Part shown: piece after piece, positions 8,717 through 42,679 of the stretch
Numbering within the stretch: the stretch's first letter is position 1
Layout: each line of letters starts with the position of its first letter
Assembly: GCA_963743885.1 (NCBI GenBank)
Contig: CAVURJ010000001.1
Location: forward strand, 355,173-419,172
Source: Candidatus Moraniibacteriota bacterium
GTDB taxonomy: Bacteria; Patescibacteriota; Minisyncoccia; Moranbacterales; UBA1568
DNA length: 64,000 bases
Direction: 5' to 3'
Translations under genes and position numbers: made by a program
Notes under the pieces: model-generated
What the model was told of the DNA's origin: nothing
Seen by the model: the letters and a program-made list of their open reading frames with translations, nothing else
Database searches by the model: none

Positions 8717-8764
8717 GACAGAATAAAGAATCATGAATTAAGAATCAAGAAAAGGAATAAACCT

Positions 8765-10880: not shown

Positions 10881-12473
10881 ATGTACGATATTCTTATCAG
10901 GAACGGGATCGTGGTAGACGGCAGCGGGCGCCCTATGTACCGCTCGGACGTCGCGATCAATGAGGACCGTATCGCCGCGATGGGCGATCTTTCGCATGCG
11001 CATGCGGAGCGTATTATCGAGGCCGATGGGAAATATGTCGTCCCTGGTTTCGTTGATATTAACAATCATTCCGATACATACTGGCAGCTTTTCGCTGCTC
11101 CGGATCTTGAGAGTCTGCTCCGGCAGGGCGTGACGACTATCATCGGTGGCAATTCAGGTTCATCACTTGCGCCGCTTACTGATCGGAGCGTCATCCGTTC
11201 CATTCAGAAGTGGACTGATGTCGAGAAGATCAATTTCAATTGGCTCTCGATGGAAGAGTTCCTTGCCGAGACTGAGCATCGCCGGCCGAGGCTCAATTTC
11301 GCGACACTTGTCGGCCATGGTACGATTCGCCGCGGCGCGATGAAGGATGAGACACGCACGATCACGCCGGATGAAATCGATATTATGCAGGATCTGCTCA
11401 AGCAATCGCTCAAAGATGGAGCGATCGGGCTTTCGACCGGCCTCAAATACACGCATGCTCGCGGGACTGGCATCCGGGAGCTCGTCGCGCTTACCAAGAC
11501 GGTGGTTGGTCAGAAAGGCGTCTACGTGACCTATGTCCGCGATGAGGAGGAGGGACTGGTCAAGTCGGTGGAGGAAGCGATCACGGTCGCTCGTGAGACC
11601 GGGGCGCCGCTCCACATCTCGCACCTCAAAGCGGTCAGTGAGAAGAACTGGCACCTTATGGACGAGGCGCTCAATCTGATCGAGACGGCGGCGCTCAATG
11701 ATATCAAAGTGACATTCGATGTCTATCCGTATATCACGACCGGTTCGGTGCTCTATACGCTTTTGCCGGAGTGGGTCACACAGGATGGCCGCAAGATGAT
11801 GCTCGAGCGTCTCAAAGATATGCAGGTGCGGAGCGCTGTCATCCGCGATATGAAGAAACGCGGGACTGATTATTCGAAGGTGCTCGTCTCTACCTCGACG
11901 CTCTCCAAGATGATGACACATCGTAAGATCTCTGATATCGCACTCCTTCAGGGTAAGTCGCCGGAAGAGACGGTCGTTGATTTTCTTATCGCGTCGGCTG
12001 GCCGGGCAATCGTATCAATGGAAGTGCTCTCGCCTCGCAATGTCCGCCGTGCTATCCAGCATCCATTTTCGATCATTTCGAGCAATGGCGTCGGTTACAG
12101 CGTGACGCACAAGGAGACGGGGGAGTTGGTACATCCACGCAATTTTGGTACCTTTCCCAAGGTGCTCGCCCAGTATGTACGTGAGGAGAAGGCGCTCTCC
12201 TGGGAAGAAGCGATTCATAAGATGAGCGGCAAGCCAGCGATGAAGTTCAGTCTGGAGAAGCGCGGCATGATCCAAGAGGGATATTTCGCCGATGTCGTCA
12301 TTCTCGATCCGGAGACCGTGGCGGACAATGCGACCATGGAGGACCCGTACCAGTATCCTGACGGTATCTCGCATGTCATTGTGAACGGCCGGCTCTCTCT
12401 TGAGAACGGCGTTCTGGTCGGCGAGCGTACCGGCACCGTACTTCGGAGGAAGAAGAAGCTGTTTGAGTGGTAG
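10881..12473 (+). CDS. N-acyl-D-amino-acid deacylase (D-aminoacylase), amidohydrolase superfamily
   Basis: MYDILIRNGIVVDGSG...VVPGFVDINNHSD N-terminus typical of D-aminoacylases; the ORF-track start 10836 overlaps the preceding gene, so the internal Met at 10881 was chosen. Confidence 0.8.
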   Translation: MYDILIRNGIVVDGSGRPMYRSDVAINEDRIAAMGDLSHAHAERIIEADGKYVVPGFVDINNHSDTYWQLFAAPDLESLLRQGVTTIIGGNSGSSLAPLTDRSVIRSIQKWTDVEKINFNWLSMEEFLAETEHRRPRLNFATLVGHGTIRRGAMKDETRTITPDEIDIMQDLLKQSLKDGAIGLSTGLKYTHARGTGIRELVALTKTVVGQKGVYVTYVRDEEEGLVKSVEEAITVARETGAPLHISHLKAVSEKNWHLMDEALNLIETAALNDIKVTFDVYPYITTGSVLYTLLPEWVTQDGRKMMLERLKDMQVRSAVIRDMKKRGTDYSKVLVSTSTLSKMMTHRKISDIALLQGKSPEETVVDFLIASAGRAIVSMEVLSPRNVRRAIQHPFSIISSNGVGYSVTHKETGELVHPRNFGTFPKVLAQYVREEKALSWEEAIHKMSGKPAMKFSLEKRGMIQEGYFADVVILDPETVADNATMEDPYQYPDGISHVIVNGRLSLENGVLVGERTGTVLRRKKKLFEW

Positions 12474-12563
12474 CAAATAAAATTTTTGTAATTTTGTAAT
12501 TTAAAATTTTAAAAGAATGTCCTAATATCTTAATTTTTTGAGTATTTGGAAATTCAAAAATTA

Positions 12564-12656
12564 TTACCAAGTGTAGTGAGTGAAACGAGAACTTGCTCTC
12601 GTTTCCGAGCGCAGCGCAGGTAAAATCGGGTCAATACCCCGCAGCTTGCTGCGGGG
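12564..12656 (+). repeat. conserved intergenic element R1 (two hairpins plus a GTAAAAT box); copies at 31544 and 47337
   Basis: about 90 nt alignable to 31544..31622 with compensatory changes in hairpin gaaacgaga..tctcgtttc versus gaaacgaaa..tttcgtttc. Confidence 0.6.
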
Positions 12657-17122: not shown

Positions 17123-17138
17123 TCTTAAGGAAGAACGA

Positions 17139-17166
17139 AGAGGGGTTTGTATGCCCCTCTTTTTTG
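17139..17166 (+). terminator. rho-independent terminator after trxB
   Basis: agaggggtttgtatgcccctct followed by TTTTTT. Confidence 0.75.
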
Positions 17167-17216
17167 ATATATTCTTCCATTTTTTTCATTCCACCTAGAG
17201 CCACTTCCTACGTAAT

Positions 17217-17372
17217 CTCCCACCCGGAAACTCTTTTCTCGAGCAAAAGGAAACTCGAATGGCTTGTTTCTAACGAAGCTCTTCCCTCCCTCTTCACGAC
17301 CTAAGGAATAGCTTCGAGAAACAAGCCCTTCTCAGACAGTCCTTTTGCCTCAAAAAGACATCCGGGTGGGAG
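17217..17372 (+). repeat. structured repeat element, C family, copy 1 (candidate ncRNA); core about 156 nt
   Basis: aligns to 27518..27673 with compensatory substitutions in three nested stems (ctcccacccgg/ccgggtgggag versus ctcccgcccag/ctgggcgggag, and others). Confidence 0.65.
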
Positions 17373-17696
17373 ATGCCTTTTCAAAATATTTCTACTTATT
17401 TAGAGGTTAAACTTCTAAGCAGAAGAATTTTTTGGCAGCGCCAGAGACCCAGGAAACACGTCTGCGGGGGCGGAATCGCCTCGTCCCCATTTCTGGAAAA
17501 ACAGAAGGAAATCCTTGATAAGATGGATAGATAAAAGAGGCTTCGAAAGCCTCTTTTATGGCGCCATTCGCGACCCTTTACAGAATCGAAAAAATGTGCT
17601 ATAATGGAATGTTTGTGGAGATGCTGAGAGGCATATCCGGAACCGCCATCTTTCCGGGCGTATCGGAAAAATGTATCTTGAAAAGGAGATGACGCC

Positions 17697-18323
17697 ATGG
17701 AAACCCATGTCCCCATCGAAAGTGTTACCCCTGGTCAAGCGGGGAAGCTGTACGACATGTTCGTCGCGAGCTTGTGCAAGAGCGGCGCTCAAAAGGAGCC
17801 CTCGCAACAAGTGATCGAACATCAGGGCACGCAGGTGGTTCGCGATATGGTGGCCGTGTTCTGCAAATATGTGGAAGCGATTAGCAACTTAATCGTCCGT
17901 CACGCCACTGTGAATCGCACCCGCACCCCGACGGAAGCGATCGATGCGACTGGTCGGAACAAGTATCTTACCGATGATGTCGTCAAGACGATGCCACGAG
18001 GCGAGGGCGACGAAGTGGACGTGGTCTTCTTCAAGCCCGACGAGTCGGCATACGACAAGCATGGCCTGATCAGCGACGACGAGGTCGCCAGGCAGTACGA
18101 GCTGCGCGGTTTCAAGCCCGCTGACCCGTATGCGCTCGCTGCCGTCAACGAGGCCGATCCGGCGTTTGCTGATGAGCATCCCAATGGTACTCATTGGCAG
18201 GATGCGAATGGCAACTGGTGCTATGCGGCCTTCGGTCGGTGGCGCGACGAGCGTGGCGTGCACGTCCACCGGCACGGCTACGACTGGCGTGGCCGCTGGT
18301 GGTTCGCTGGCCTGCGCAAGTAG
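17697..18323 (+). CDS. DGR target (variable) protein; C-terminal variable repeat, probable C-type-lectin-fold ligand-binding domain
   Basis: 208-aa ORF with RBS aaggag; C-terminal 32 codons are homologous to the template repeat 18742..18839 with adenine-specific differences; ends ...WWFAGLRK. Confidence 0.8.
   Translation: METHVPIESVTPGQAGKLYDMFVASLCKSGAQKEPSQQVIEHQGTQVVRDMVAVFCKYVEAISNLIVRHATVNRTRTPTEAIDATGRNKYLTDDVVKTMPRGEGDEVDVVFFKPDESAYDKHGLISDDEVARQYELRGFKPADPYALAAVNEADPAFADEHPNGTHWQDANGNWCYAAFGRWRDERGVHVHRHGYDWRGRWWFAGLRK
18223..18320 (+). repeat. DGR variable repeat (VR), about 96 bp, at the 3' end of the target gene
   Basis: about 80% identical to the TR; every internal difference lies at a TR adenine; shared 3' block tggtggttcgctggcctgcgcaa is a candidate IMH. 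Confidence 0.85.
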
Positions 18324-18369
18324 TCCTCTGGACTTTGGATTTTGCTCTGACCTTTGAGCTTAGTCCTTA

Positions 18370-18401
18370 GCCCTTTGACCCCGCATTTTACCAACATGGT
18401 A
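18370..18401 (+). terminator. GC-rich hairpin plus T-run downstream of the VR (terminator and/or DGR homing-associated hairpin)
   Basis: ccccgca-N17-tgcgggg followed by tttcatttttt, about 50 nt after the target-gene stop. Confidence 0.5.
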
Positions 18402-18741
18402 GTGCGGGGTTTCATTTTTTCAATTTCTTACATTTTGATATACTGAAACTGGTAGTAGGCGAATCTGGAGGTGATTACGGTTGCTTCCGGCCGAATCCAG
18501 TATCCATACATCGAGAATATCTTCGGACTACGGTTCAGGGTAGGGTGATGTATGCAGACACTTCATCCTTCGATAAGACTCAGGATGACCCCGAGTTTGT
18601 CGATGGGTCAAAAATGAAGATACTTGGTATAGGGCACTATGGCATTTGAGATGCCGAATCCGATTCAATTCCGAGAGTTCGTCTCTGCCTAGTCGGCGGA
18701 TGAAGAATCAAGGAATGGTGGCATGGGCGGTGCCTTATACG

Positions 18742-18839
18742 ATGCGGCCTTCAATCGGTGGAACGACAAGCGTAACGTGAACGTCAACCGGAACGACAAC
18801 GACTGGAATGACAACTGGTGGTTCGCTGGCCTGCGCAAC
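18742..18839 (+). repeat. DGR template repeat (TR), about 96 bp, adenine-rich (many AAC codons)
   Basis: same orientation as the VR; noncoding although ORF finders call 18723..19040; abuts the 3' end of the avd-like gene on the opposite strand. Confidence 0.85.
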
Positions 18840-18844
18840 TCTCT

Positions 18845-19243
18845 TCATTTCTCTCCCTTCCTTGTGTTGGGAGAGTTTTGTTTCAAGAGTTGTCCGTTCC
18901 AGCCGCCGAGCATCCGCCCGATTTCGTCGATCTTTTCGGAAAGTGCGATATACTTCTTGGTATCGACCGATTTCGTTTCCCAGAGGACGAGCAGGAGAAC
19001 TTTGAGTGTGTCGACTTTTCGTATCGCATGGCGGACATAGGGCATCTTTTCCTGCGGCGAGAGGAAAGCGGCTGCCGAGACGCATTCGATGCACTCTATG
19101 AAAATATGATCGATTCGTTGGCCGAGAGAATAGCGATGCGTCTTGGGAAGCGAAGAAAGAATATTGTACCAGAATAAATAAGCATCCTTTATCTTATGCA
19201 AGACAGGCACAAGTCTGGGGGGGGTAACTCCAGGAAGCATCAT
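18845..19243 (-). CDS. avd: DGR accessory variability determinant (Avd), four-helix-bundle protein (23S rRNA-intervening-sequence protein family)
   Basis: 132 aa; pattern Y..L....Y.IL..LPKTHRYSLG.RI....I...E....A...............K.....LL.L...........S.KIDEIGRMLGGW matches Bordetella phage bAvd and other DGR Avd proteins. Confidence 0.8.
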   Translation of the reverse strand: MMLPGVTPPRLVPVLHKIKDAYLFWYNILSSLPKTHRYSLGQRIDHIFIECIECVSAAAFLSPQEKMPYVRHAIRKVDTLKVLLLVLWETKSVDTKKYIALSEKIDEIGRMLGGWNGQLLKQNSPNTRKGEK

Positions 19244-20347
19244 AGCAAAACAAAAAAGAAATTAGCGGCTGCCTATGATGATATCATATCTCTTGAGAAT
19301 CTTCTCGATGCCTGGAAAGAATTCCTGAAGGGGAAAAAGAACAAGCAGGATGTCCAGGCATTCGAAGCGCGTCTCATGGACAACCTCTTCTCGCTCCATG
19401 AAGACCTGAAGCACAAAACCTACGAGCACGGTGGCTATCAGGCTTTCAAGATAAGTGACCCGAAGCCGCGCGATATCCACAAAGCCTCGGTACGTGACCG
19501 GCTCATCCATCACGCCATCTACCGAATCCTCTATCCGTTCTTCGATACGCTCTTTATCGCCGATTCATATTCTTGCCGCGAAGAGAAAGGCACACACCGG
19601 GCACTTGATCGTTTCCAGGCCTTCGCTCGGAAAGTCTCGTGCAATCACACAAAGACCGCCTGGGTGCTCAAGTGTGATATCCGGAAGTTTTTCGCGTCGA
19701 TTGATCAGGATATTCTACTTAGTATCTTACAGGAGCGGATACCGGACCGGGACATACTGTGGCTTTTGGAGAAAGTGATAGGAAGTTTTTCCTCTACCTG
19801 TTGTCATCCCGGGCTCCCGCCCGTACCGAACCGGTGCGTTCGGGCGGGTGACCCGGGATCCAGAGGGGATGGATTCCGGCTCGGGGGCCGGAATGACAGA
19901 GAAGAGGATTCTATGAGAAAAAATGGGCTCCCACTTGGCAACCTCACTTCGCAGCTTCTCGTGAATATCTACATGAACGAATTCGACCAGTTCGTGAAGC
20001 ATCGCCTGAAAGCGAAATACTCTATACGTTACGCAGATGATTTTGTCTTGTTTTCAAGAAACCACGAAGAGCTTGATGGCTGGCTTATCCTCATCACGGA
20101 GTTCCTTTGGGAACAGCTTCATCTGAAGCTCCACCCAAACAAGGTCTCTATCCAGACAGTCGCTTCGGGTGTGGACTTCCTTGGGTGGACACATTTTCCT
20201 GATCATCGGGTGCTCCGAGGAGCGACGAAGCGGAGGATGTTCCGGAAAGCGAGTGAGAAGAATGTCGCTTCATATATTGGATTGCTCTCGCATGGGAATG
20301 GGTACCGACTCCAAAAGATGTTGGCAGAGCGTTTTGGTGTGGAGTGA
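19196..20347 (+). CDS. DGR reverse transcriptase
   Basis: VRDRLIHHAIYRIL...FIADSYSCREEKGTHRALDRFQ is nearly collinear with Bordetella bRT; YADDFVLF catalytic motif; LGNLTSQ motif 4 (the I/LGxxxSQ DGR signature); ATG start overlaps the divergent avd start by about 48 nt. Confidence 0.9.
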   Translation: MQDRHKSGGGNSRKHHSKTKKKLAAAYDDIISLENLLDAWKEFLKGKKNKQDVQAFEARLMDNLFSLHEDLKHKTYEHGGYQAFKISDPKPRDIHKASVRDRLIHHAIYRILYPFFDTLFIADSYSCREEKGTHRALDRFQAFARKVSCNHTKTAWVLKCDIRKFFASIDQDILLSILQERIPDRDILWLLEKVIGSFSSTCCHPGLPPVPNRCVRAGDPGSRGDGFRLGGRNDREEDSMRKNGLPLGNLTSQLLVNIYMNEFDQFVKHRLKAKYSIRYADDFVLFSRNHEELDGWLILITEFLWEQLHLKLHPNKVSIQTVASGVDFLGWTHFPDHRVLRGATKRRMFRKASEKNVASYIGLLSHGNGYRLQKMLAERFGVE

Positions 20348-20421
20348 TGCAAAGGTACTGAAACAGTACGCGCGCTTTACAGCGACGTAAAAACGTGCTA
20401 TACTGATAGGGTAGTGGAAAG

Positions 20422-20460
20422 GCGGGTGGTCTCGGAAACGGGACGCCCGCTTTTCTTTTT
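20422..20460 (+). terminator. hairpin plus T-rich tract downstream of the RT
   Basis: gcgggtggtctcggaaacgggacgcccgc followed by ttttcttttt, then a second long imperfect hairpin at 20461..20538. Confidence 0.45.
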
Positions 20461-20703
20461 CCGGGAGAGAAAGCCTGCTTTTTGAGGTACTGCGGCGCAG
20501 TTTCTGTGTTACGCGGCCCAGCGAGGCTTTTCTCCCGGGGGAAGAAACAGGTCCTTTAAAAACAAAAATCAAAAACAAAAAGCCCTGCTTTTTACAAAGC
20601 AAGACATGATTCCCTGTCTTGACCGCCTTCTTCACGGCGAAAAATCGAACAGACCGCTTCTGAAAAAACCTTTTCACAAGCGGTTTTTTCATTTATTCCC
20701 ATA

Positions 20704-20732
20704 TTGATTTATAGGCTGTTTTCGGCTATGAT
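20704..20732 (+). promoter_or_regulatory. sigma70-like promoter TTGATT-17-TATGAT upstream of murA
   Basis: spacing and hexamers fit the consensus; 30 nt upstream of the ATG. Confidence 0.5.
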
Positions 20733-20761
20733 GCCAGGGTACATCCGGTAATACATCTGTC

Positions 20762-23039: not shown

Positions 23040-23170
23040 TTTGCTAACAAATTCCAAAGCTCAAAATCACAAATCCCAAATAAATTTCAAATGACAAAAT
23101 TCGAATGTTCGAAATGTCTTGGATTTTGATATTGAGTTTTTGAATTTATTTGGAGCTTGCGATTTTGAAT
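23040..23170. repeat. AT-rich imperfect palindromic intergenic element, copy E2
   Basis: left arm ccaaagctcaaaatcacaaatcccaaataaattt and right arm aatttatttggagcttgcgattttgaatttt are near reverse-complements; homologous to 7715..7858. Confidence 0.6.
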
Positions 23171-23171
23171 T

Positions 23172-24305
23172 TTGAATTTTATGCTCATCGGTATTGATGC
23201 TTCGCGGGCGTTTCTCAAGCGGCGGACAGGCATCGAGGAATACGCGTATCAGACGATCAAACATTTGCGGACGGCTATCCCGGTGACGGATAGTGTTGTT
23301 TTATATGTTCGAAAAAAATTGGAAATTGGTCCGCCGGCTGGCGGATGGAAATTGGAAATTCGCACGCCAGAGATAGACTTTGAATTACCGAAAAACTGGC
23401 ACGTGCGCGCCTTATGGGCTCCTCGTTTTTGGACACAAGTAGGGCTTTCACTTGAGATGCTTCTCCGGCGCCCGGATGTTCTTTTTGTGCCAGCCCATAC
23501 GGTTCCAATCATCCACCCGAAAAAGACTATCGTGACGGTCCATGGCCTGGAATACGAATTCTGTCCCGAAGCGTATCCGTTTCTTGCACGTCTCTATATG
23601 CGCTTTTTCATCCGGCACTCATGTCGTGTGGCGAGTACGGTAATCTGTGTATCGGAGAATACCAAGAGGGATGTGATGCGGCTTTATGGTACGCCGGAAG
23701 AAAAAATACGGGTGGTGTATGAAGGTTTTGAAAGAATCAAGAATCAAGAATCAAGAATCAAGAACGGAATTCAAAAACCGTATTTGTTATTCATCGGCAG
23801 GCTTGAGGAGAGAAAAAATCTCAAGAGAATCATAGAGGCTTTTGAAATTTTGAAAAAGTGGCACGGCATCCCGCATGATTTGATGCTTGTCGGGAAACCC
23901 GGATATGGGTATGGGGGCATAAAATCCTTGATTCTCAATTCTCAATTCTCAATTCATCTCAAAGAGCTGGGATATGTAAGCGAGGAAGAGAAGTGGAGTC
24001 TCTTGGCAAATGCTGATGTATTCCTTTTCCCGACGCTCTATGAGGGATTCGGTATCCCGGTACTCGAAGCACAAGCGGCTGGTGCGCCGGTCGTCGCGTC
24101 GAATACGTCTTCTTTGCCCGAGGTGGGCGGTGAGGGGGCGGTCTACGCTGATCCTTTGAGTGCGGAAAGCATCGCGGAAGCTATCCAGAAGCTCCTTTCG
24201 GACGAAGCCTTTCGAGATGATATAATAAGGAAAGGTTTGGAAAACGTGAAGCGTTTCAGTTGGCATGGATGTGCAGGTGAGATTGCGAGCTTATTGAGGA
24301 AGTAA
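23172..24305 (+). CDS. family-4 (GT-B) glycosyltransferase; contains two heptanucleotide tandem-repeat tracts
   Basis: C-terminal EGFGIPVLEA...G.PVVAS GT4 motif; (gaatcaa)x4 at 23734..23761 and (attctca)x3-4 at 23931..23958 lie inside the CDS. Confidence 0.85.
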   Translation: MNFMLIGIDASRAFLKRRTGIEEYAYQTIKHLRTAIPVTDSVVLYVRKKLEIGPPAGGWKLEIRTPEIDFELPKNWHVRALWAPRFWTQVGLSLEMLLRRPDVLFVPAHTVPIIHPKKTIVTVHGLEYEFCPEAYPFLARLYMRFFIRHSCRVASTVICVSENTKRDVMRLYGTPEEKIRVVYEGFERIKNQESRIKNGIQKPYLLFIGRLEERKNLKRIIEAFEILKKWHGIPHDLMLVGKPGYGYGGIKSLILNSQFSIHLKELGYVSEEEKWSLLANADVFLFPTLYEGFGIPVLEAQAAGAPVVASNTSSLPEVGGEGAVYADPLSAESIAEAIQKLLSDEAFRDDIIRKGLENVKRFSWHGCAGEIASLLRK

Positions 24306-24404: not shown

Positions 24405-25544
24405 ATGTTAGATACAATGAAGTCAAAAAAAATCGCATTAGTTCATGATTTTCTTGTTTCGTACGGCGGGGCGGAGCGGGTGTTTCAGACGATCGCCGAG
24501 ATGTATCCGGAAGCGCCGATCTACACGTTGGTCGCGGACCGCGAATTGGTCGAGCGGCATTTCCCTGGCCGTGATGTCCGGGTTTCATGGTTGTCTGGGC
24601 TACCTTCGTTCCTCCGCAGGCGGTATCGCTGGTTTCTGCCGTTCTTTCCGGCAGCGGTCGAGGCGTTCGATTTGCGCGATTTCGATCTCGTCATCTCATC
24701 ATCCGGTGCTTGGGGGAAGGGTATCGTCACTCGGCTTAATACGAAGCATATCGCGTACCTGCATTCGCCTATGCGCTATGCTTGGGACTACCACGAAGAA
24801 TACTTGAAGGAGATTGGCCGTCGGAAGCCGGGCATCTGTGTCAGACTACTGCTTTCCTATCTTCGTGTCTGGGATCGCCAGGCAGCGGACCGACCAGACT
24901 TCCTTATTGCCAATTCACGGTATACTGCTGACCGTGTCAGGAAATACTATCGCCGTGAAAGCGTGGTTATTTATCCACCGGCTTTGGGATTGGCGGAGAC
25001 GATTTCAAACGGGGCCCTTCGACAAGCTCAGGGCGACCAAAAAATAAGAGAACATTTTTTGGTCGTTTCGCGGCTGACCAGATCAAAGAAAGTCGATATT
25101 GCTATCGAGGCGTTCAATAAGCTCGGATTCCCGCTTGTCATCGTCGGCGATGGCCCGGAGCGTGCACGGCTGGCACGGATGGCTGGCACGAATATTCGTT
25201 TTGCTGGTTTTGTCTCGGATGATGAGCTTGCAAAGCTGTATCTTGGCGCACGGGCGCTCATCTTCCCGTCTGAGGAGGATTTTGGCATGACGGCCGCAGA
25301 AGCACTCTCTTTCGGGACGCCGGTCATTGCGTTCGAATACGGCGGCATCCGGGAGGTTGTTGAGCAGGGCCGGTCAGGAGAGTTGTTCGCGGCCCAGACG
25401 CCGGAGATCCTCGCCGAGGGTGTGCGGCGCTTCCTTGCGAATGAGGGGAAGTATGATGAAACACTTATGAAGGAATCGGTGGATAGATTTAGCAAAGAGC
25501 GGTTTCGGGAAGAACTCCGTGCGTTTGTAGAAAAAGTGATTTAA
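24405..25544 (+). CDS. family-4 (GT-B) glycosyltransferase
   Basis: EDFGMTAAEALSFGTPVIA GT4 signature; N-terminal ALVHDFLVSYGGAERV typical of GT1/GT4 N-domains. Confidence 0.85.
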   Translation: MLDTMKSKKIALVHDFLVSYGGAERVFQTIAEMYPEAPIYTLVADRELVERHFPGRDVRVSWLSGLPSFLRRRYRWFLPFFPAAVEAFDLRDFDLVISSSGAWGKGIVTRLNTKHIAYLHSPMRYAWDYHEEYLKEIGRRKPGICVRLLLSYLRVWDRQAADRPDFLIANSRYTADRVRKYYRRESVVIYPPALGLAETISNGALRQAQGDQKIREHFLVVSRLTRSKKVDIAIEAFNKLGFPLVIVGDGPERARLARMAGTNIRFAGFVSDDELAKLYLGARALIFPSEEDFGMTAAEALSFGTPVIAFEYGGIREVVEQGRSGELFAAQTPEILAEGVRRFLANEGKYDETLMKESVDRFSKERFREELRAFVEKVI

Positions 25545-25607
25545 GATTGATGATTGATGATTTAGGAATGAATTCATAAATCCTAATTCATAAATCCTAA
25601 ATCGTCT

Positions 25608-26495: not shown

Positions 26496-27475
26496 ATCGT
26501 ATGGGTATCCTGGCGAAATGGAAGAAGACGCGCGGAACGAGAGGGGATTTCTCTTCGAAGGTGTTTACGTCGTCGCGCGCGATGGCTCGGCCGAACCGCC
26601 GAGAGGCGATTGATGGCAGGAAGCCACTGCCAATCGTTGACTTCGTCCTGTGGGGCTCGCTGCTTGCAGTTTCCGGTTATTTGCTCTTGTTCTCACCGTT
26701 TCTCACGGTAAGCCGAGTGGATATTTCAGGTCTTTCCGAGCTGGATGATTCGGATGTGCGTGCTGCGGTTATGAGCGAGCTTTCTGGCAAGCATCTTGGC
26801 ATCTGGCCGAAGGACAACTTCTTCGCGGTGCGACCGGCTAAGCTTTCCGGATTGCTCACCGGTCAGTATCCACTTTTGCGGGAGGTCTTGGTGACGCGCC
26901 GCTTCCCAGAGACGCTGCTTATAGAGGTGAAAGAACGCGAGCATATCGTGCTCTGGCACAGGGCGGGAGAGCAAGGCCTGATGCTCGGCGAGGATGGCCG
27001 GCTGTTCCAGAATGACCAAGTGTTTTCCGAAGCGAATGCGCCGTATGTCGTCTCGATCACTGATCTATCTGCTCAGCCGGCGGCCGAGGGTCAGCGTGTG
27101 GCTGATGAGCGGCTGGTTCCATTCGTTTCCTCGATAGGTGAGGAAATAGCACGTCGTCTTGGGCTTTCGGTCGGGAATGAGTATTCGATTGTATCGCGGT
27201 TCGCCGGTGAGCTCCGCATGACGACCGGTGAGGGGTGGGAACTTTATATGAGCACGGAGCGGCCGCTTGCTGCGACGCTTGATGCGCTTGCGCTTCTTTT
27301 TGAGAAGGAACTGTCGCCGGAAAAGCGGTCAGGACTCCGGTATATCGATATGCGCATCGAAAATCGCGTGTACTATGCTTTTAAGGATGCTCCAGCGGAA
27401 GAGCCAGCCATCGAGTCATCTGAATCATCGGATAAGAAGGAGGTTGTGGATGACGAGAAGAAAAAGAAAAAGTAG
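26492..27475 (+). CDS. ftsQ: cell-division protein FtsQ/DivIB-like (POTRA domain)
   Basis: single TM segment followed by POTRA-like VSRVDISGL...; true start probably downstream near 26582. Confidence 0.65.
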   Translation: MNRMGILAKWKKTRGTRGDFSSKVFTSSRAMARPNRREAIDGRKPLPIVDFVLWGSLLAVSGYLLLFSPFLTVSRVDISGLSELDDSDVRAAVMSELSGKHLGIWPKDNFFAVRPAKLSGLLTGQYPLLREVLVTRRFPETLLIEVKEREHIVLWHRAGEQGLMLGEDGRLFQNDQVFSEANAPYVVSITDLSAQPAAEGQRVADERLVPFVSSIGEEIARRLGLSVGNEYSIVSRFAGELRMTTGEGWELYMSTERPLAATLDALALLFEKELSPEKRSGLRYIDMRIENRVYYAFKDAPAEEPAIESSESSDKKEVVDDEKKKKK

Positions 27476-27517
27476 TTTTTTGGCTCATGGTCTTGGCATG
27501 TATCTTTGAGCGTGAGT

Positions 27518-27890
27518 CTCCCGCCCAGAAACTCCTTTCTCGAGCAAAAGAAAACTCGAAGGGTTTGTTTCTAACGGAGCTTTTCCCTCATTCTACACGG
27601 CCCCAGGAAAACCTCCGAGAAACAAACCCTTCTTAGACAATTCTTTTGCCTCAAAAGGACATCTGGGCGGGAGACCTTCCTCATACCACGCTTGGTCTCT
27701 TTCGTTTGAGTTTCGCATCTCCTCCTCGTCCATTTTTTCTTCCTCTGGTTTCCGGCGGCAACATTTCTGATGAGTGAGCCGGTAACGGTCGAGCATGGCG
27801 TTCGGGACTGCTTCAGTCCTCAGAACGAACAACTCCCCGTTCGGCAGAGCAAGTCAGAAATGTTCGACGGAAATCATGGAATGAAAAAAT
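27518..27890 (+). repeat. structured repeat element, C family, copy 2 (156-nt core plus about 155-nt 3' module shared with copy 3)
   Basis: core 27518..27673 aligns to copy 1; 3' module 27735..27890 is nearly identical to 47672..47830. Confidence 0.65.
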
Positions 27891-27946
27891 GGATAGGAGG
27901 CGATGCATGAATGGTTTCCGGATGAGAAATTGATGCGGTCCTTACT

Positions 27947-27982
27947 GCTTAAAAAACACCCCGGAATTATTCTGGGGTGTTT
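27947..27982 (-). terminator. rho-independent terminator for the minus-strand gene 27998..29893
   Basis: hairpin aacaccccggaattattctggggtgtt with an A-run on plus (T-run on minus). Confidence 0.7.
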
Positions 27983-29914: not shown

Positions 29915-31540
29915 TTACGGTAGACGGACGATGGTAAAGGCGCTTCCGGTGCCTGGCCGCGGGTCGATTTCTATGACTTTGGCTTCTGGGGAGCGGGCGA
30001 GGATGTTGGCGATGACTTTGTCGTTGCGTGAGATGAAGATGATGATGCTGTCATAGCGCGAGATGGTCACATCGGCATCAGGAATGAGCCAGGTGAGGTT
30101 CTTGATCTTTCCGTCAGTCAGAAAGACAATCGGCTGAGCATCGATCGGGAGGTGGTTGCCGACGATGCGGCTTCGGTCGTTTGAGACGACGTATTTATGT
30201 GTTTCTTCCGGCAGAGCGAGGAGGTATTCGGCGATATTGCGCTCGTTTAGGGAGAATGAGCTCATCTGGCTCGGGCTCCCGGCGAAGTAGACGAAATATT
30301 TGGTGAGATTGATGGCGGCGCTCGCACCGAGGAGGATGATCAGTGCTGAGAGGAGCATCGTCCGCTTGGTATGCCGCGCAGTGATGCCGTGTTTGGCTAT
30401 CCAGAAGACAGGGAGCGTCGCCATGAGGAAGACCGGTACTTGGGTGCCGATGGAGCGGAGTGCGTGTGGCAGTCCCTCGTGGGTGAGGAATTCCGGCATG
30501 AGCATGACGAAGAACGATCCGAGGAGGAAGGTATTGCGCACGAGCCGGAGATCGCGGTCCTTGCGTATCAGCCTTCGGCCGAGGAGTAATCCAGCCTGCC
30601 AGACAGTATAGATGAAGCCGGCAAGGAAAAGTGCACCGACGATCGGATCAAGGACGGGATAGGGCGGATAGTTGTGTCGCCAGTTCTGGTCGCCCCAGAA
30701 GTTGTATTTGATGAGGCTAAGTGTGACGGTTTTGCTCATTGTTCCGAGGAGATCACCGTGGTTAATCTCCGGGGAGAAGATGGAGACGGCAGCGGAACGG
30801 GAGGCAAAATCTCCTGGATGCGAGATGAAGAAATGGTAGAGCATCGGAGCGGCCGAGACGAAAGCGCCGAAGATGAAGACGACTCCGTGTTTCCAGTAGC
30901 GCCTGAGGAAGTCCTCGTAGGAGAGGATGAGTACTGGGAGAAGGATGACGAGGATGAGTGGTGCGACGCGGAAGGCGACGTACGTATGGAGTCCGAGACC
31001 GAAGATGAGGCCACCCCAGAGGAAATCTGCGAATTTGCGTGTGCGGAGGCCGCGGAAGAAGAAGTAGAAGGAGAACGAGAGGATGAGCGACGTCATAATC
31101 GCCCGGAAGCCGATGCGGGAGAAGTTGATCGCCCAGAAGGAGGTGGCAGTGATGAAGGCGGCGATGAGTCCGGCGGAACGGCGGCGGAAGAGTTCGGCAG
31201 CGAGGAGATACATGCCCCAGACAGTCAACGTGCCGAAGATGATCGACCAGAGTTTGAGGGCAGGAATGGTGTTGCCGAGAGCCTTGAGCGCCAAGGCCTG
31301 GAGGTTGATGAAGAGCCCTTCGCGGCCGTAATTGTTCTCGTAGAAGAGGAGGTAGTCGCCGGTCCGGTTGGCGTAGGTTGCATCGGCCGCATTGACGGCT
31401 TCGTCGGGGTAGATGCCGGAGGGGATGTCTGAGATACGGTAGCTTCGGACGAAGAGTGCGAGGAGAAGGATGAGTGTGAGCACTCCGAAATTTATGAGCC
31501 GTGCACGCTGGGTGTTGTTCATATGTTTTTTTATTACCAA
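29915..31540 (-). CDS. ArnT/GT83-GT39-like membrane glycosyltransferase
   Basis: 541 aa polytopic; YRISDIPSGIYPDEAVNA GT-C loop motif. Confidence 0.75.
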   Translation of the reverse strand: MVIKKHMNNTQRARLINFGVLTLILLLALFVRSYRISDIPSGIYPDEAVNAADATYANRTGDYLLFYENNYGREGLFINLQALALKALGNTIPALKLWSIIFGTLTVWGMYLLAAELFRRRSAGLIAAFITATSFWAINFSRIGFRAIMTSLILSFSFYFFFRGLRTRKFADFLWGGLIFGLGLHTYVAFRVAPLILVILLPVLILSYEDFLRRYWKHGVVFIFGAFVSAAPMLYHFFISHPGDFASRSAAVSIFSPEINHGDLLGTMSKTVTLSLIKYNFWGDQNWRHNYPPYPVLDPIVGALFLAGFIYTVWQAGLLLGRRLIRKDRDLRLVRNTFLLGSFFVMLMPEFLTHEGLPHALRSIGTQVPVFLMATLPVFWIAKHGITARHTKRTMLLSALIILLGASAAINLTKYFVYFAGSPSQMSSFSLNERNIAEYLLALPEETHKYVVSNDRSRIVGNHLPIDAQPIVFLTDGKIKNLTWLIPDADVTISRYDSIIIFISRNDKVIANILARSPEAKVIEIDPRPGTGSAFTIVRLP

Positions 31541-31543
31541 ACG

Positions 31544-31622
31544 AAGTGAGTGAAACGAAAGTTTGCTTTCGTTTCCGAACGCAGTGCTGGTAAAATCAGG
31601 TATAATACTCCGCGGCTTGCCC
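31544..31622 (+). repeat. conserved intergenic element R2 (hairpins plus tgGTAAAAT box)
   Basis: aligns to 12564..12656 with compensatory hairpin changes. Confidence 0.6.
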
Positions 31623-42581: not shown

Positions 42582-42679
42582 CTTAGTGGAATTCCTAATA
42601 TCACACTTCTAATCTTTAGGGATTAAGACATTGGGATCTTCGTTAGGAATTAGAAATTAGATATTAGAAATTTGAAAGT

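Follow-up and report, generated by a model that had tools for sequence, protein, structure and literature searches.

The locus studied here raises the question of what kind of element recurs as a long hairpin in the spacers between the genes of a bacterium from the Candidate Phyla Radiation (CPR). In a stretch of 64,000 nt from Candidatus Moraniibacteriota bacterium (contig CAVURJ010000001.1 of assembly GCA_963743885.1, positions 355,173 to 419,172 of the forward strand; hereafter, the window), a preliminary description had reported three copies of a structured intergenic element, which we refer to as C, and had proposed that it was either a novel non-coding RNA (ncRNA) or a MITE (miniature inverted-repeat transposable element). 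Our analysis indicates that C is a real, non-coding, structured repeat, the pairing of which is kept by compensatory mutations, and that it is best described as a narrowly distributed, lineage-restricted family of a Candidatus Moranbacteria clade.

The C hairpin and its covariation

Two full copies of C are present in the window (17216-17373 and 27517-27674), which align without gaps over 158 nt at 85% identity (blastn E 7e-42). The third copy that had been claimed (47493-47670) was not borne out. A covariance model of C built from the full copies gave no match at 47460-47670, even at E≤10, and most of the interval belongs to a different element, X. The C-like stretch within it amounts to about 30-60 nt only, as judged from a degenerate 3'-arm pattern match at 47578-47607 and a blastn alignment of 31 nt at 84%. 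C is dispersed over three loci in 64 kb, as two full copies plus this one remnant. Either full copy folds into a single long imperfect hairpin of 58 pairs, with folding free energies of -77.5 and -79.4 kcal/mol on the plus strand and -87.4 and -90.6 kcal/mol on the minus strand. The folding z-scores of the two copies were -9.2 to -10.2, and none of 200 shuffled sequences folded equally well. The whole element is palindromic, with arms of 60-80 nt and ends that form an inverted repeat (TCTCCCRCCCRGA / TCYGGGYGGGAGA), and no conserved open reading frame (ORF) was apparent upon sequence inspection. All three of the stems quoted in the preliminary description are present in the sequence and are paired, but rather than three nested helices they are segments of the one continuous hairpin, and the copy labels had been swapped: it is the copy at 17216 that has ctcccacccgg/ccgggtgggag, ggcttgtttct/agaaacaagccc, and cgaag/cttcg, and the one at 27517 that has the other versions.

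The compensatory character of the differences in these stems was confirmed. The two window copies differ at 24 positions, 12 of which make up six compensated Watson-Crick pairs; the remainder comprise one pair altered on both sides that is unpaired, a one-sided change, and nine changes in unpaired columns. The covariation score of the two copies was reached by none of 500 shuffles, and the true register of their alignment pairs 98% of the cells, compared to 37-63% in slid registers. All six compensated pairs are of the transition/transition type, unlike the other 12 changes, which are divided 6:6 between transitions and transversions (P about 0.05 in a recount without the non-pairing 66/94 pair). 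This pattern fits passage via wobble G-U or G-T intermediates. Taken with the asymmetric bulges, which are conserved, it speaks against a simple arm-to-arm copy correction. The covariation had originally been taken as a sign of selection upon RNA (or cruciform) structure. Pairing is indeed kept, but an RNA gene is not implied by covariation alone, because compensatory changes are common in the hairpins of REPINs (PMC3116915) and are likewise found in the bcr1 repeats (PMC3184786).

Homologues of PrmC, FtsQ, and TrxB assign the window to Candidatus Moranbacteria, on a contig of 652,564 bp. The relatives compared in this study are syntenic contigs of four related genomes, namely those from SRR33452767 (L001, L008, and L013), SRR25032434 (L002 and L007), JGI 3300037810 (L003 and L005), and JGI 3300045995 (L009 and L011). 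Covariance-model and blastn searches of these revealed four further copies of C in three related metagenomic genomes, such that the family now consists of six copies in four genomes. One of the additional copies (L008:2011-2168) is an orthologue located downstream of ftsQ that is 97% identical to window copy 2. The other three (L001:1543-1723, L003:10828-11006, and L011:7560-7744) form a diverged subfamily and are all located on the minus strand in the spacer between prmC and a gene encoding a 193-aa protein. Across genomes, orthologous copies exhibit 94-97% identity, and each of the six copies is intergenic and situated in a gene 3' flank.

A length-invariant inner core of 88 nt is carried by all six copies, and its motifs occur in the same order with the same spacing in every one of them (RAACTC, 31 nt, TTCCCTC, 22 nt, AGGAA, 27 nt, CTYAGACA). 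The core consists of RAACUC, a 15-bp helix, a CGGAG/CUCCG helix, and a UUUCC/GGAAA helix; a 19-nt CU-rich apical loop follows and CUYAGACA is found on the 3' side. Around the core lies an outer stem that spans 35-50 nt per arm and varies in both length and sequence with the subfamily. Conservation is concentrated in the apical loop, the CGGAG/CUCCG helix flanking it, and both strands of the internal loop, with the intervening helices being variable. The invariant length made it possible to align the six inner cores without gaps, and hence without fitting the alignment to the structure. Among the 28 pairs in this alignment, 11 had changed on both sides and none on one side only, while 94.6% of the cells were paired versus 33-59% in slid registers, and the covariation score was again equalled by 0/500 shuffles. 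Six compensated pairs were also evident in a MAFFT alignment of the orthologous trio from L001, L003, and L011. Thus, the covariation of C is robust among both paralogues and orthologues. A full-length MAFFT alignment across the two subfamilies was discarded due to misaligned 3' arms and was replaced by the covariance-model and ungapped core alignments.

Mosaic arrays of C, m, and X in related genomes

The spacers occupied by C are polymorphic between close relatives and also contain two other elements, m and X. In the window, the ftsQ-PMT spacer is 523 bp in length and contains C and m, and the arrangement in L008 is the same. Elsewhere, this spacer is 101 bp and empty (L007), 271 bp with m in the opposite orientation (L009), or 175 bp with an unrelated AT-rich hairpin (L005). 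The prmC/193-aa spacer, when read from the 193-aa gene towards prmC, contains X, the C remnant, and m in the window; C and an inverted X in both L001 and L003; C, a truncated inverted X, and m in L011; and solely an inverted m in L002. At a third site, the murA and mreB genes overlap (ATGA) in the window and L007, and are separated by m in L009 and L005, in opposite orientations. Overall, C, m, and X behave as modules of mosaic intergenic arrays. The comparison of the window with L008 also revealed an abrupt change in similarity. The holB and ftsQ genes of the two are 73-80% identical at the nucleotide level, but from ~27300, inside the 3' end of ftsQ, the identity rises to 92-98% and continues through the spacer, C, and m (27300-27810). 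Since the jump begins within coding sequence, it suggests a recent recombination tract, rather than constraint upon the elements alone.

With regard to the MITE proposal, C has the terminal inverted repeats of a classical MITE and lacks its target-site duplications. None of the six copies has a consistent direct repeat of ≥3 nt at a distance of up to 5 nt from its ends, and no transposase, integrase, RAYT, or insertion sequence (IS) gene was found in the 64-kb window or among the called genes of ~190 kb of related loci. The strict form of the MITE interpretation was therefore abandoned. As for the distribution of the family, patterns specific to the window subtype yielded no matches in two scans of GTDB representatives, two scans of viral contigs gave none, and two metagenome scans yielded none besides one chance match (L004), which is AT-rich and has no hairpin. 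Plasmid and phage sequences likewise gave no match by blastn. The presumed novelty of the element with respect to Rfam held up, as Rfam 15 searched with the whole window and with short stretches yielded no match to C, m, or X at the gathering score, and at E≤10 the short stretches returned merely generic miRNA-hairpin noise. It should be noted that the contig of the closest relative (L013) stops 66 nt past the trxB stop codon (L013:6046-6111) in sequence containing TTCCGCCCAGCCG, a motif similar to the 5' terminus of C, and a repeat may have interrupted the assembly there.

The sequence shared 3' of C at two of the loci, which the preliminary description had treated as a module of the same element, is present as described and constitutes a separate hairpin family (m). 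The cores of its window copies (27733-27889 and 47672-47828) are 91% identical and the copies form hairpins of about 190 nt, with folding energies of -101.4 (z -11) and -93.3 kcal/mol. We examined the window sequences (27729-27893 and 47668-47832) together with four copies from L002, L009, and L011. The resulting consensus contains 13 compensated pairs and is clearly strand-asymmetric, having 34 G-T/G-U cells versus 8 A-C cells, and the plus strand is 6-22 kcal/mol more stable in 6/6 copies. Despite this asymmetry, the orientation of m relative to its neighbouring genes is inconsistent. Beyond the core, the copies have an outer stem of 11-29 bp that is never the same from one site to the next. 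The left flank of the L009 copy is the reverse complement (26/29 nt) of its right flank (L009:10969-11000 and 11143-11180), and this right flank is present once in the empty L007 site (28/29; L007:10970-11000). Either an inverted copy was made at or after the arrival of m, or L007 lost the arm together with m via a GAT-repeat deletion. The inverted flank duplication is a single case and none was seen for C. Taken together, the m flanks suggest templated palindrome extension or a hairpin-based insertion mechanism. Two other candidate functions for m were rejected. The reading frame of a putative small protein (ORF MSEPVTVEHG...) contains a TAG in L002 and is frameshifted in L009b, and a hammerhead ribozyme was dismissed, as its CUGAUGAG is paired within the long hairpin and Rfam returned no hammerhead match. 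Gene callers annotate the m of L009 as a 62-aa small ORF. To the left of C copy 1 is a possible terminal fragment of m, which matches the m terminus at 17/18 positions with a z-score of 4.5, barely over the best shuffle.

The X element of the window matches L001:1356-1560 at 96% identity and L003:10631-10836 at 83%, in genomes whose PrmC proteins are 67-69% identical, and the 193-aa gene next to the copy with 96% identity has an identity of about 90%. With respect to the genes on either side, the window X is inverted compared to those of L001 and L003, and it is missing from the same spacer in L002. At about 160-200 nt, X could be an undescribed structured RNA, and the candidates SRP (signal recognition particle), 6S, and RNase P RNA were rejected for want of support from Rfam. 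Downstream of C copy 1, a fragment resembling the 5' part of an inverted X (17424..17476) aligned locally to the L011 sequence downstream of C at z 12.9, and that L011 sequence aligns to the inverted X at z 5-13.

Genomic context of the C copies

The coordinates of the elements and of the features around them are listed in Table 1. Window copy 2 is located between the stop codon of the ftsQ-like gene (27475) and the bidirectional terminator that is common to the ftsQ-like gene and the convergent PMT gene. This terminator is conserved in L005, L007, and L009, and C together with m (27517-27910) is upstream of it, so both would be part of the ftsQ 3' untranslated region (UTR). Copy 1 directly follows the terminator of the trxB-like gene, and the element mosaic of the prmC/193-aa spacer begins directly past the terminator of the 193-aa gene. 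In L001, L003, and L011, C is likewise situated between this terminator and prmC, with its minus strand co-directional with prmC. A promoter scan identified no promoter-like site adjoining either window copy of C, and a terminator scan identified no T-run terminator at the ends of C, the window copies being followed by TGCCTTTTC and CCTTCCTC.

Table 1. Positions of C, m, and X elements and of neighbouring features in the window
Feature	Position	Strand	Remarks
C copy 1	17216..17373	+	158-nt imperfect hairpin, inner core 17251-17338; covariance model 182 bits
C copy 2	27517..27674	+	inner core 27552-27639; covariance model 192 bits
C 3'-arm remnant, fused to X	47578..47640	+	right end (about 47640) approximate; not a full copy
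X element	47383..47587	+	multi-branch consensus fold with long closing stem and internal hairpins
Fragment similar to the 5' portion of inverted X	17424..17476	+	downstream of C copy 1, about 54 nt
m element copy	27715..27910	+	long irregular hairpin; core 27733-27889 plus site-specific outer stem
m element, second copy	47655..47845	+	core 47672-47828; 92% identical to L011:7278-7458
Possible m terminal fragment	17176..17193	-	left of C copy 1; weak
Intrinsic-terminator-like hairpin	17137..17162	+	belongs to trxB-like gene; upstream of C copy 1
Bidirectional terminator-like hairpin	27954..27982	.	common to convergent ftsQ-like and PMT genes
Terminator hairpin	47306..47330	.	after 193-aa gene; conserved in all relatives
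Diversity-generating retroelement variable region	18223..18319	+	3' end of target gene 17697-18323; context, not part of C

Apart from housekeeping genes, the window contains only a diversity-generating retroelement (DGR), the target gene of which the preliminary description had placed directly next to C copy 1. Copy 1 is indeed upstream of the DGR target gene, but not immediately so: 323 nt lie between its end and the target gene ATG (17697), and these include an A/T-flanked hairpin (17533-17557) and a promoter-like site (17577-17605, 11/12 matches). The variable region of the target gene pairs with a template region at 18742-18838, every mismatch being an A in the template, and the gene at 19196-20347 encodes a reverse transcriptase (RT) with a match to RVT_1. 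Relative to L007:4027-4437 and L009:3636-4001, in which trxB directly precedes the conserved murA upstream region, about 17125-20400 of the window (~3.3 kb) is an insertion comprising both the DGR cassette and C copy 1. The location of copy 1 inside this block is what favours C being an accessory element of the DGR. However, none of the other five C copies is beside an RT, template, or variable region, and copy 1 is itself separated from the target gene by the hairpin and promoter-like site. Cis elements of DGRs have been described from the variable region's 3' end and the surroundings of the template region, and are not known from positions upstream of the target gene. We regard an accessory role for C in the DGR as close to refuted. 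The adjacency looks incidental, given the five copies without a DGR and the lack of both features at the trxB-murA site of L007 and L009.

Several other structured sequences were recorded at these loci. Upstream of murA, a conserved non-coding region of ~350 nt (20395-20760; L007:4040-4437 and L009:3650-4001) includes an extended -10 type promoter (CGTGCTATACT) and several conserved hairpins, and could correspond to a leader or a small RNA. Two in-frame GC-rich palindromes, CCCGGGCTCCCGCCCG...CGGGCGGGTGACCCGGG and ATTCCGGCTCGGGGGCCGGAAT, are located within the DGR RT ORF (19808-19895), and the first of these shares a CTCCCGCCC/GGGCGGG motif with the C termini. Inverted repeats of GAATCAA heptads are found inside the seemingly intact ORFs of prmC (48340-48500) and a GT4 gene (23733-23955), as well as at 8717-8751 and 25534-25568. 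Conservation of prmC is lowest in its repeat-bearing segment (43-55% identity to L001). The arrangement recalls palindromic inserts that keep the reading frame, such as Rickettsia palindromic elements (RPEs). Long AT-rich hairpins occur in further spacers at 42590-42672, 23049-23180, and L005:5640-5790 (AATTCCTAATATCA...TTCTAAT type), and one of these takes up the ftsQ-PMT spacer of L005. Lastly, a 71-nt repeat containing an internal hairpin (GAAACGAGAAC...CTCGTTTC) is present in two copies (12561-12631 and 31531-31601) that are 85% identical.

The nature of the C family

We favour, with a probability of roughly 0.55, the interpretation that C belongs to a lineage-restricted family of intergenic repeats that form long hairpins in gene 3' flanks, similar in kind to ERIC, bcr1, and Correia elements, and therefore 'MITE-like' in the broad sense. 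C is situated either past a stop codon and ahead of a bidirectional terminator, or directly behind a terminator, and the arrays of C, m, and X at these sites are gained, lost, reordered, and inverted between close relatives. By this interpretation, the hairpin itself is maintained via selection on pairing. Read-through from the neighbouring gene would place C in a 3' UTR, where it is predicted to fold into a near-continuous duplex of ~60 bp. If C has a host function at all, it would probably act in cis, either stabilising the 3' end of the mRNA or providing a site for RNase III-type processing. The conserved loop and bulge motifs with their fixed spacing, together with the covarying helices, suggest that the folded single strand has a recogniser, most probably a protein. 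The spread of C would presumably be a DNA-level process, either recombination or transposition in trans by an enzyme that was not seen here.

Several observations weigh against this interpretation. There is no target-site duplication at any C copy and neither isolated C termini nor a transposase in the window, so C itself is only putatively mobile. The filled and empty sites of C cannot be aligned base for base, and the insertion point is accordingly not definable. The family is also known from six copies only, in two subfamilies. In addition, the 97% identity of C between the window and L008, compared to ~76% for ftsQ, could reflect strong constraint instead of recombination. Finally, the strand bias of C hints at a strand-specific role for which a purely selfish DNA palindrome would have no need: the minus strand folds 10-16 kcal/mol better than the plus strand in five of the six copies.

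Comparison with known systems clarifies both the appeal and the limits of this grouping. ERIC (or IRU) elements of the Enterobacteriaceae are imperfect palindromes of ~127 bp that reside in transcribed intergenic regions near gene 3' ends, vary in copy number, and are not known to be associated with a transposase. C similarly is a long imperfect palindrome near gene 3' ends that is variable between relatives and has no associated transposase. It differs in having a length-invariant core and a variable outer stem, in being recorded so far from a narrow CPR clade only, and in lacking any sequence relationship to ERIC. RPEs comprise palindromic families of 100-150 nt in a reduced genome, where they also occur inside ORFs. 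The window resembles this situation in being part of a reduced genome with palindromic elements and with palindromic inserts in ORFs (prmC, the GT4 gene, and the DGR RT), whereas the C copies are all intergenic and share no sequence relationship with RPEs. The Correia elements of Neisseria (CREE/NEMIS) possess 26-bp terminal inverted repeats, a TA duplication, the capacity to create promoters, and a site for integration host factor (IHF). None of these was found for C. Both are hairpin elements of 100-160 bp located beside genes. When co-transcribed, Correia elements form double-stranded RNA that is bound and cleaved by RNase III or that protects the transcript, and IHF binding has been described (PMC2649163); the effect of the double-stranded RNA is the mechanism proposed in cis for C as well. 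The bcr1 repeats of the Bacillus cereus group are ~155 bp, dispersed, intergenic, and strain-variable, with a long stem-loop kept by compensatory changes (PMC3184786). C and bcr1 are alike in size, dispersed intergenic placement, relative-dependent distribution, long stem-loop, and compensatory changes. They differ in that bcr1 is transcribed and flanked by 5-bp direct repeats, which C lacks, and in that the two have no sequence similarity and reside in different host phyla. Among the features of the ERIC/bcr1 type, those found for C are a single stem-loop of 120-180 bp, a non-coding intergenic location near gene ends, and compensatory changes. BIMEs and REPINs recall the C/m/X arrays in their mosaic palindromic modules of alternating order and orientation in the same spacers and, for REPINs, in compensatory changes; however, they are composed of 20-35-nt REP units linked to RAYT, whereas the present modules measure 160-200 nt and no RAYT gene was detected in the window. 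Full-text literature searches turned up no account of intergenic repeat families of a MITE-like or palindromic kind from CPR bacteria.

Whether C acts as RNA or as DNA bears directly upon the alternatives. G-U pairs account for 2% of the cells in the model-fitted alignment of C, and wobble-type mismatches are about equally frequent on both strands. The G-U use, strand energies, and transition bias of C, as well as the asymmetry of m, are compatible with an RNA hairpin or a single-stranded DNA (ssDNA) hairpin alike. C could conceivably be a small multi-copy family of stand-alone ncRNA genes, that is, a CPR-specific small RNA with its own promoter and functional loop motifs. Its strong helix covariation with conserved loop motifs and spacing, its lack of an Rfam match, and the 94-97% identity kept between orthologous copies would all be expected of such a gene, and the minus strand is consistently the better folder and is co-directional with prmC in L001, L003, and L011. 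Even so, we consider this unlikely, given that the window copies have no adjoining promoter-like site or T-run terminator, the two strands fold almost equally with low use of G-U pairs, 15% of the positions differ between two copies of one genome, the same spacers lack C in L005, L007, L009, and L002, and one window copy is truncated and fused to another element. Conversely, the hairpin might matter as DNA, with C serving as an ssDNA substrate for recombination or transposition of the REPIN/RAYT, IS200/IS605-derived, or attC-like type by a recombinase encoded elsewhere. This would account for a structure that is kept while its sequence varies and for the asymmetric, conserved bulges. It would also accommodate the clear strand asymmetry of m in combination with its inconsistent orientation relative to host transcription, the finding that relatives carry elements in either orientation at one and the same site, and both the site-specific outer stems of m and the inverted flank copy in L009 that is single in the empty L007 site. 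However, neither the window nor the called genes of ~190 kb of related loci include a Y1 transposase, RAYT, integrase, or IS gene, inspection revealed neither REP-like units of 20-35 nt nor attC R''/R' core sites, and the flank duplication was seen once, for m and not for C. We judge this alternative to be rather improbable. An integron attC identity was rejected for both C and m, the ends of which lack RYYYAAC ... GTTRRRY core sites upon inspection, with no integrase in the window. Bridge RNA, omega RNA, and retron msd were rejected for C as well, there being no adjacent partner gene and none of the defining motifs.

A further alternative requires no function at all: C could be a neutral DNA palindrome whose arms are kept complementary by templated strand-switch repair, in which case the compensations would be mutational in origin. 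A template-switch mechanism of this sort is known from quasi-palindrome mutagenesis, and the inverted m flank of L009 suggests that this lineage can extend palindromes by templating. Moreover, the compensated changes between the window copies run from Watson-Crick pair to Watson-Crick pair without one-sided intermediates, and the hairpin is nearly symmetric on both strands. Yet such correction should erase asymmetries, whereas the bulges, RAACUC, CUYAGACA, and the 19-nt loop retain their exact spacing in both subfamilies. Uncorrected mismatches persist, and the restriction of the compensated paralogue pairs to transitions (P about 0.05) is not shared by the remaining changes. We consider a neutral origin of the pairing to be highly improbable. 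A more speculative proposal is that C, m, and X are modules of an undescribed CPR-specific system of strand-specific elements, the folded single strands of which would be recognised by a dedicated protein and which would spread by hairpin-templated inverted copying of adjacent DNA rather than by direct target duplication. Such a system would explain the conserved loops and covarying stems, the site-specific outer stems of m, the orientation flips at fixed sites, and the lack of both target-site duplications and a transposase. We hold it to be doubtful and prefer the interpretation of C as one of the long-hairpin intergenic repeats.

For the biology of these organisms, the results imply that a very small CPR genome, known here as a 652-kb contig, holds at least three families of 160-200-nt hairpin elements in its few intergenic spacers, and that the three have been rearranged among close relatives, yet retain their structure under selection. 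As a practical matter, the elements break short-read assemblies and are mis-annotated as small ORFs. If they move as single-stranded hairpins, they would represent an unrecognised route of mobilisation, and if they act upon mRNA 3' ends, they would give organisms that have few regulators an inexpensive additional level of regulation.

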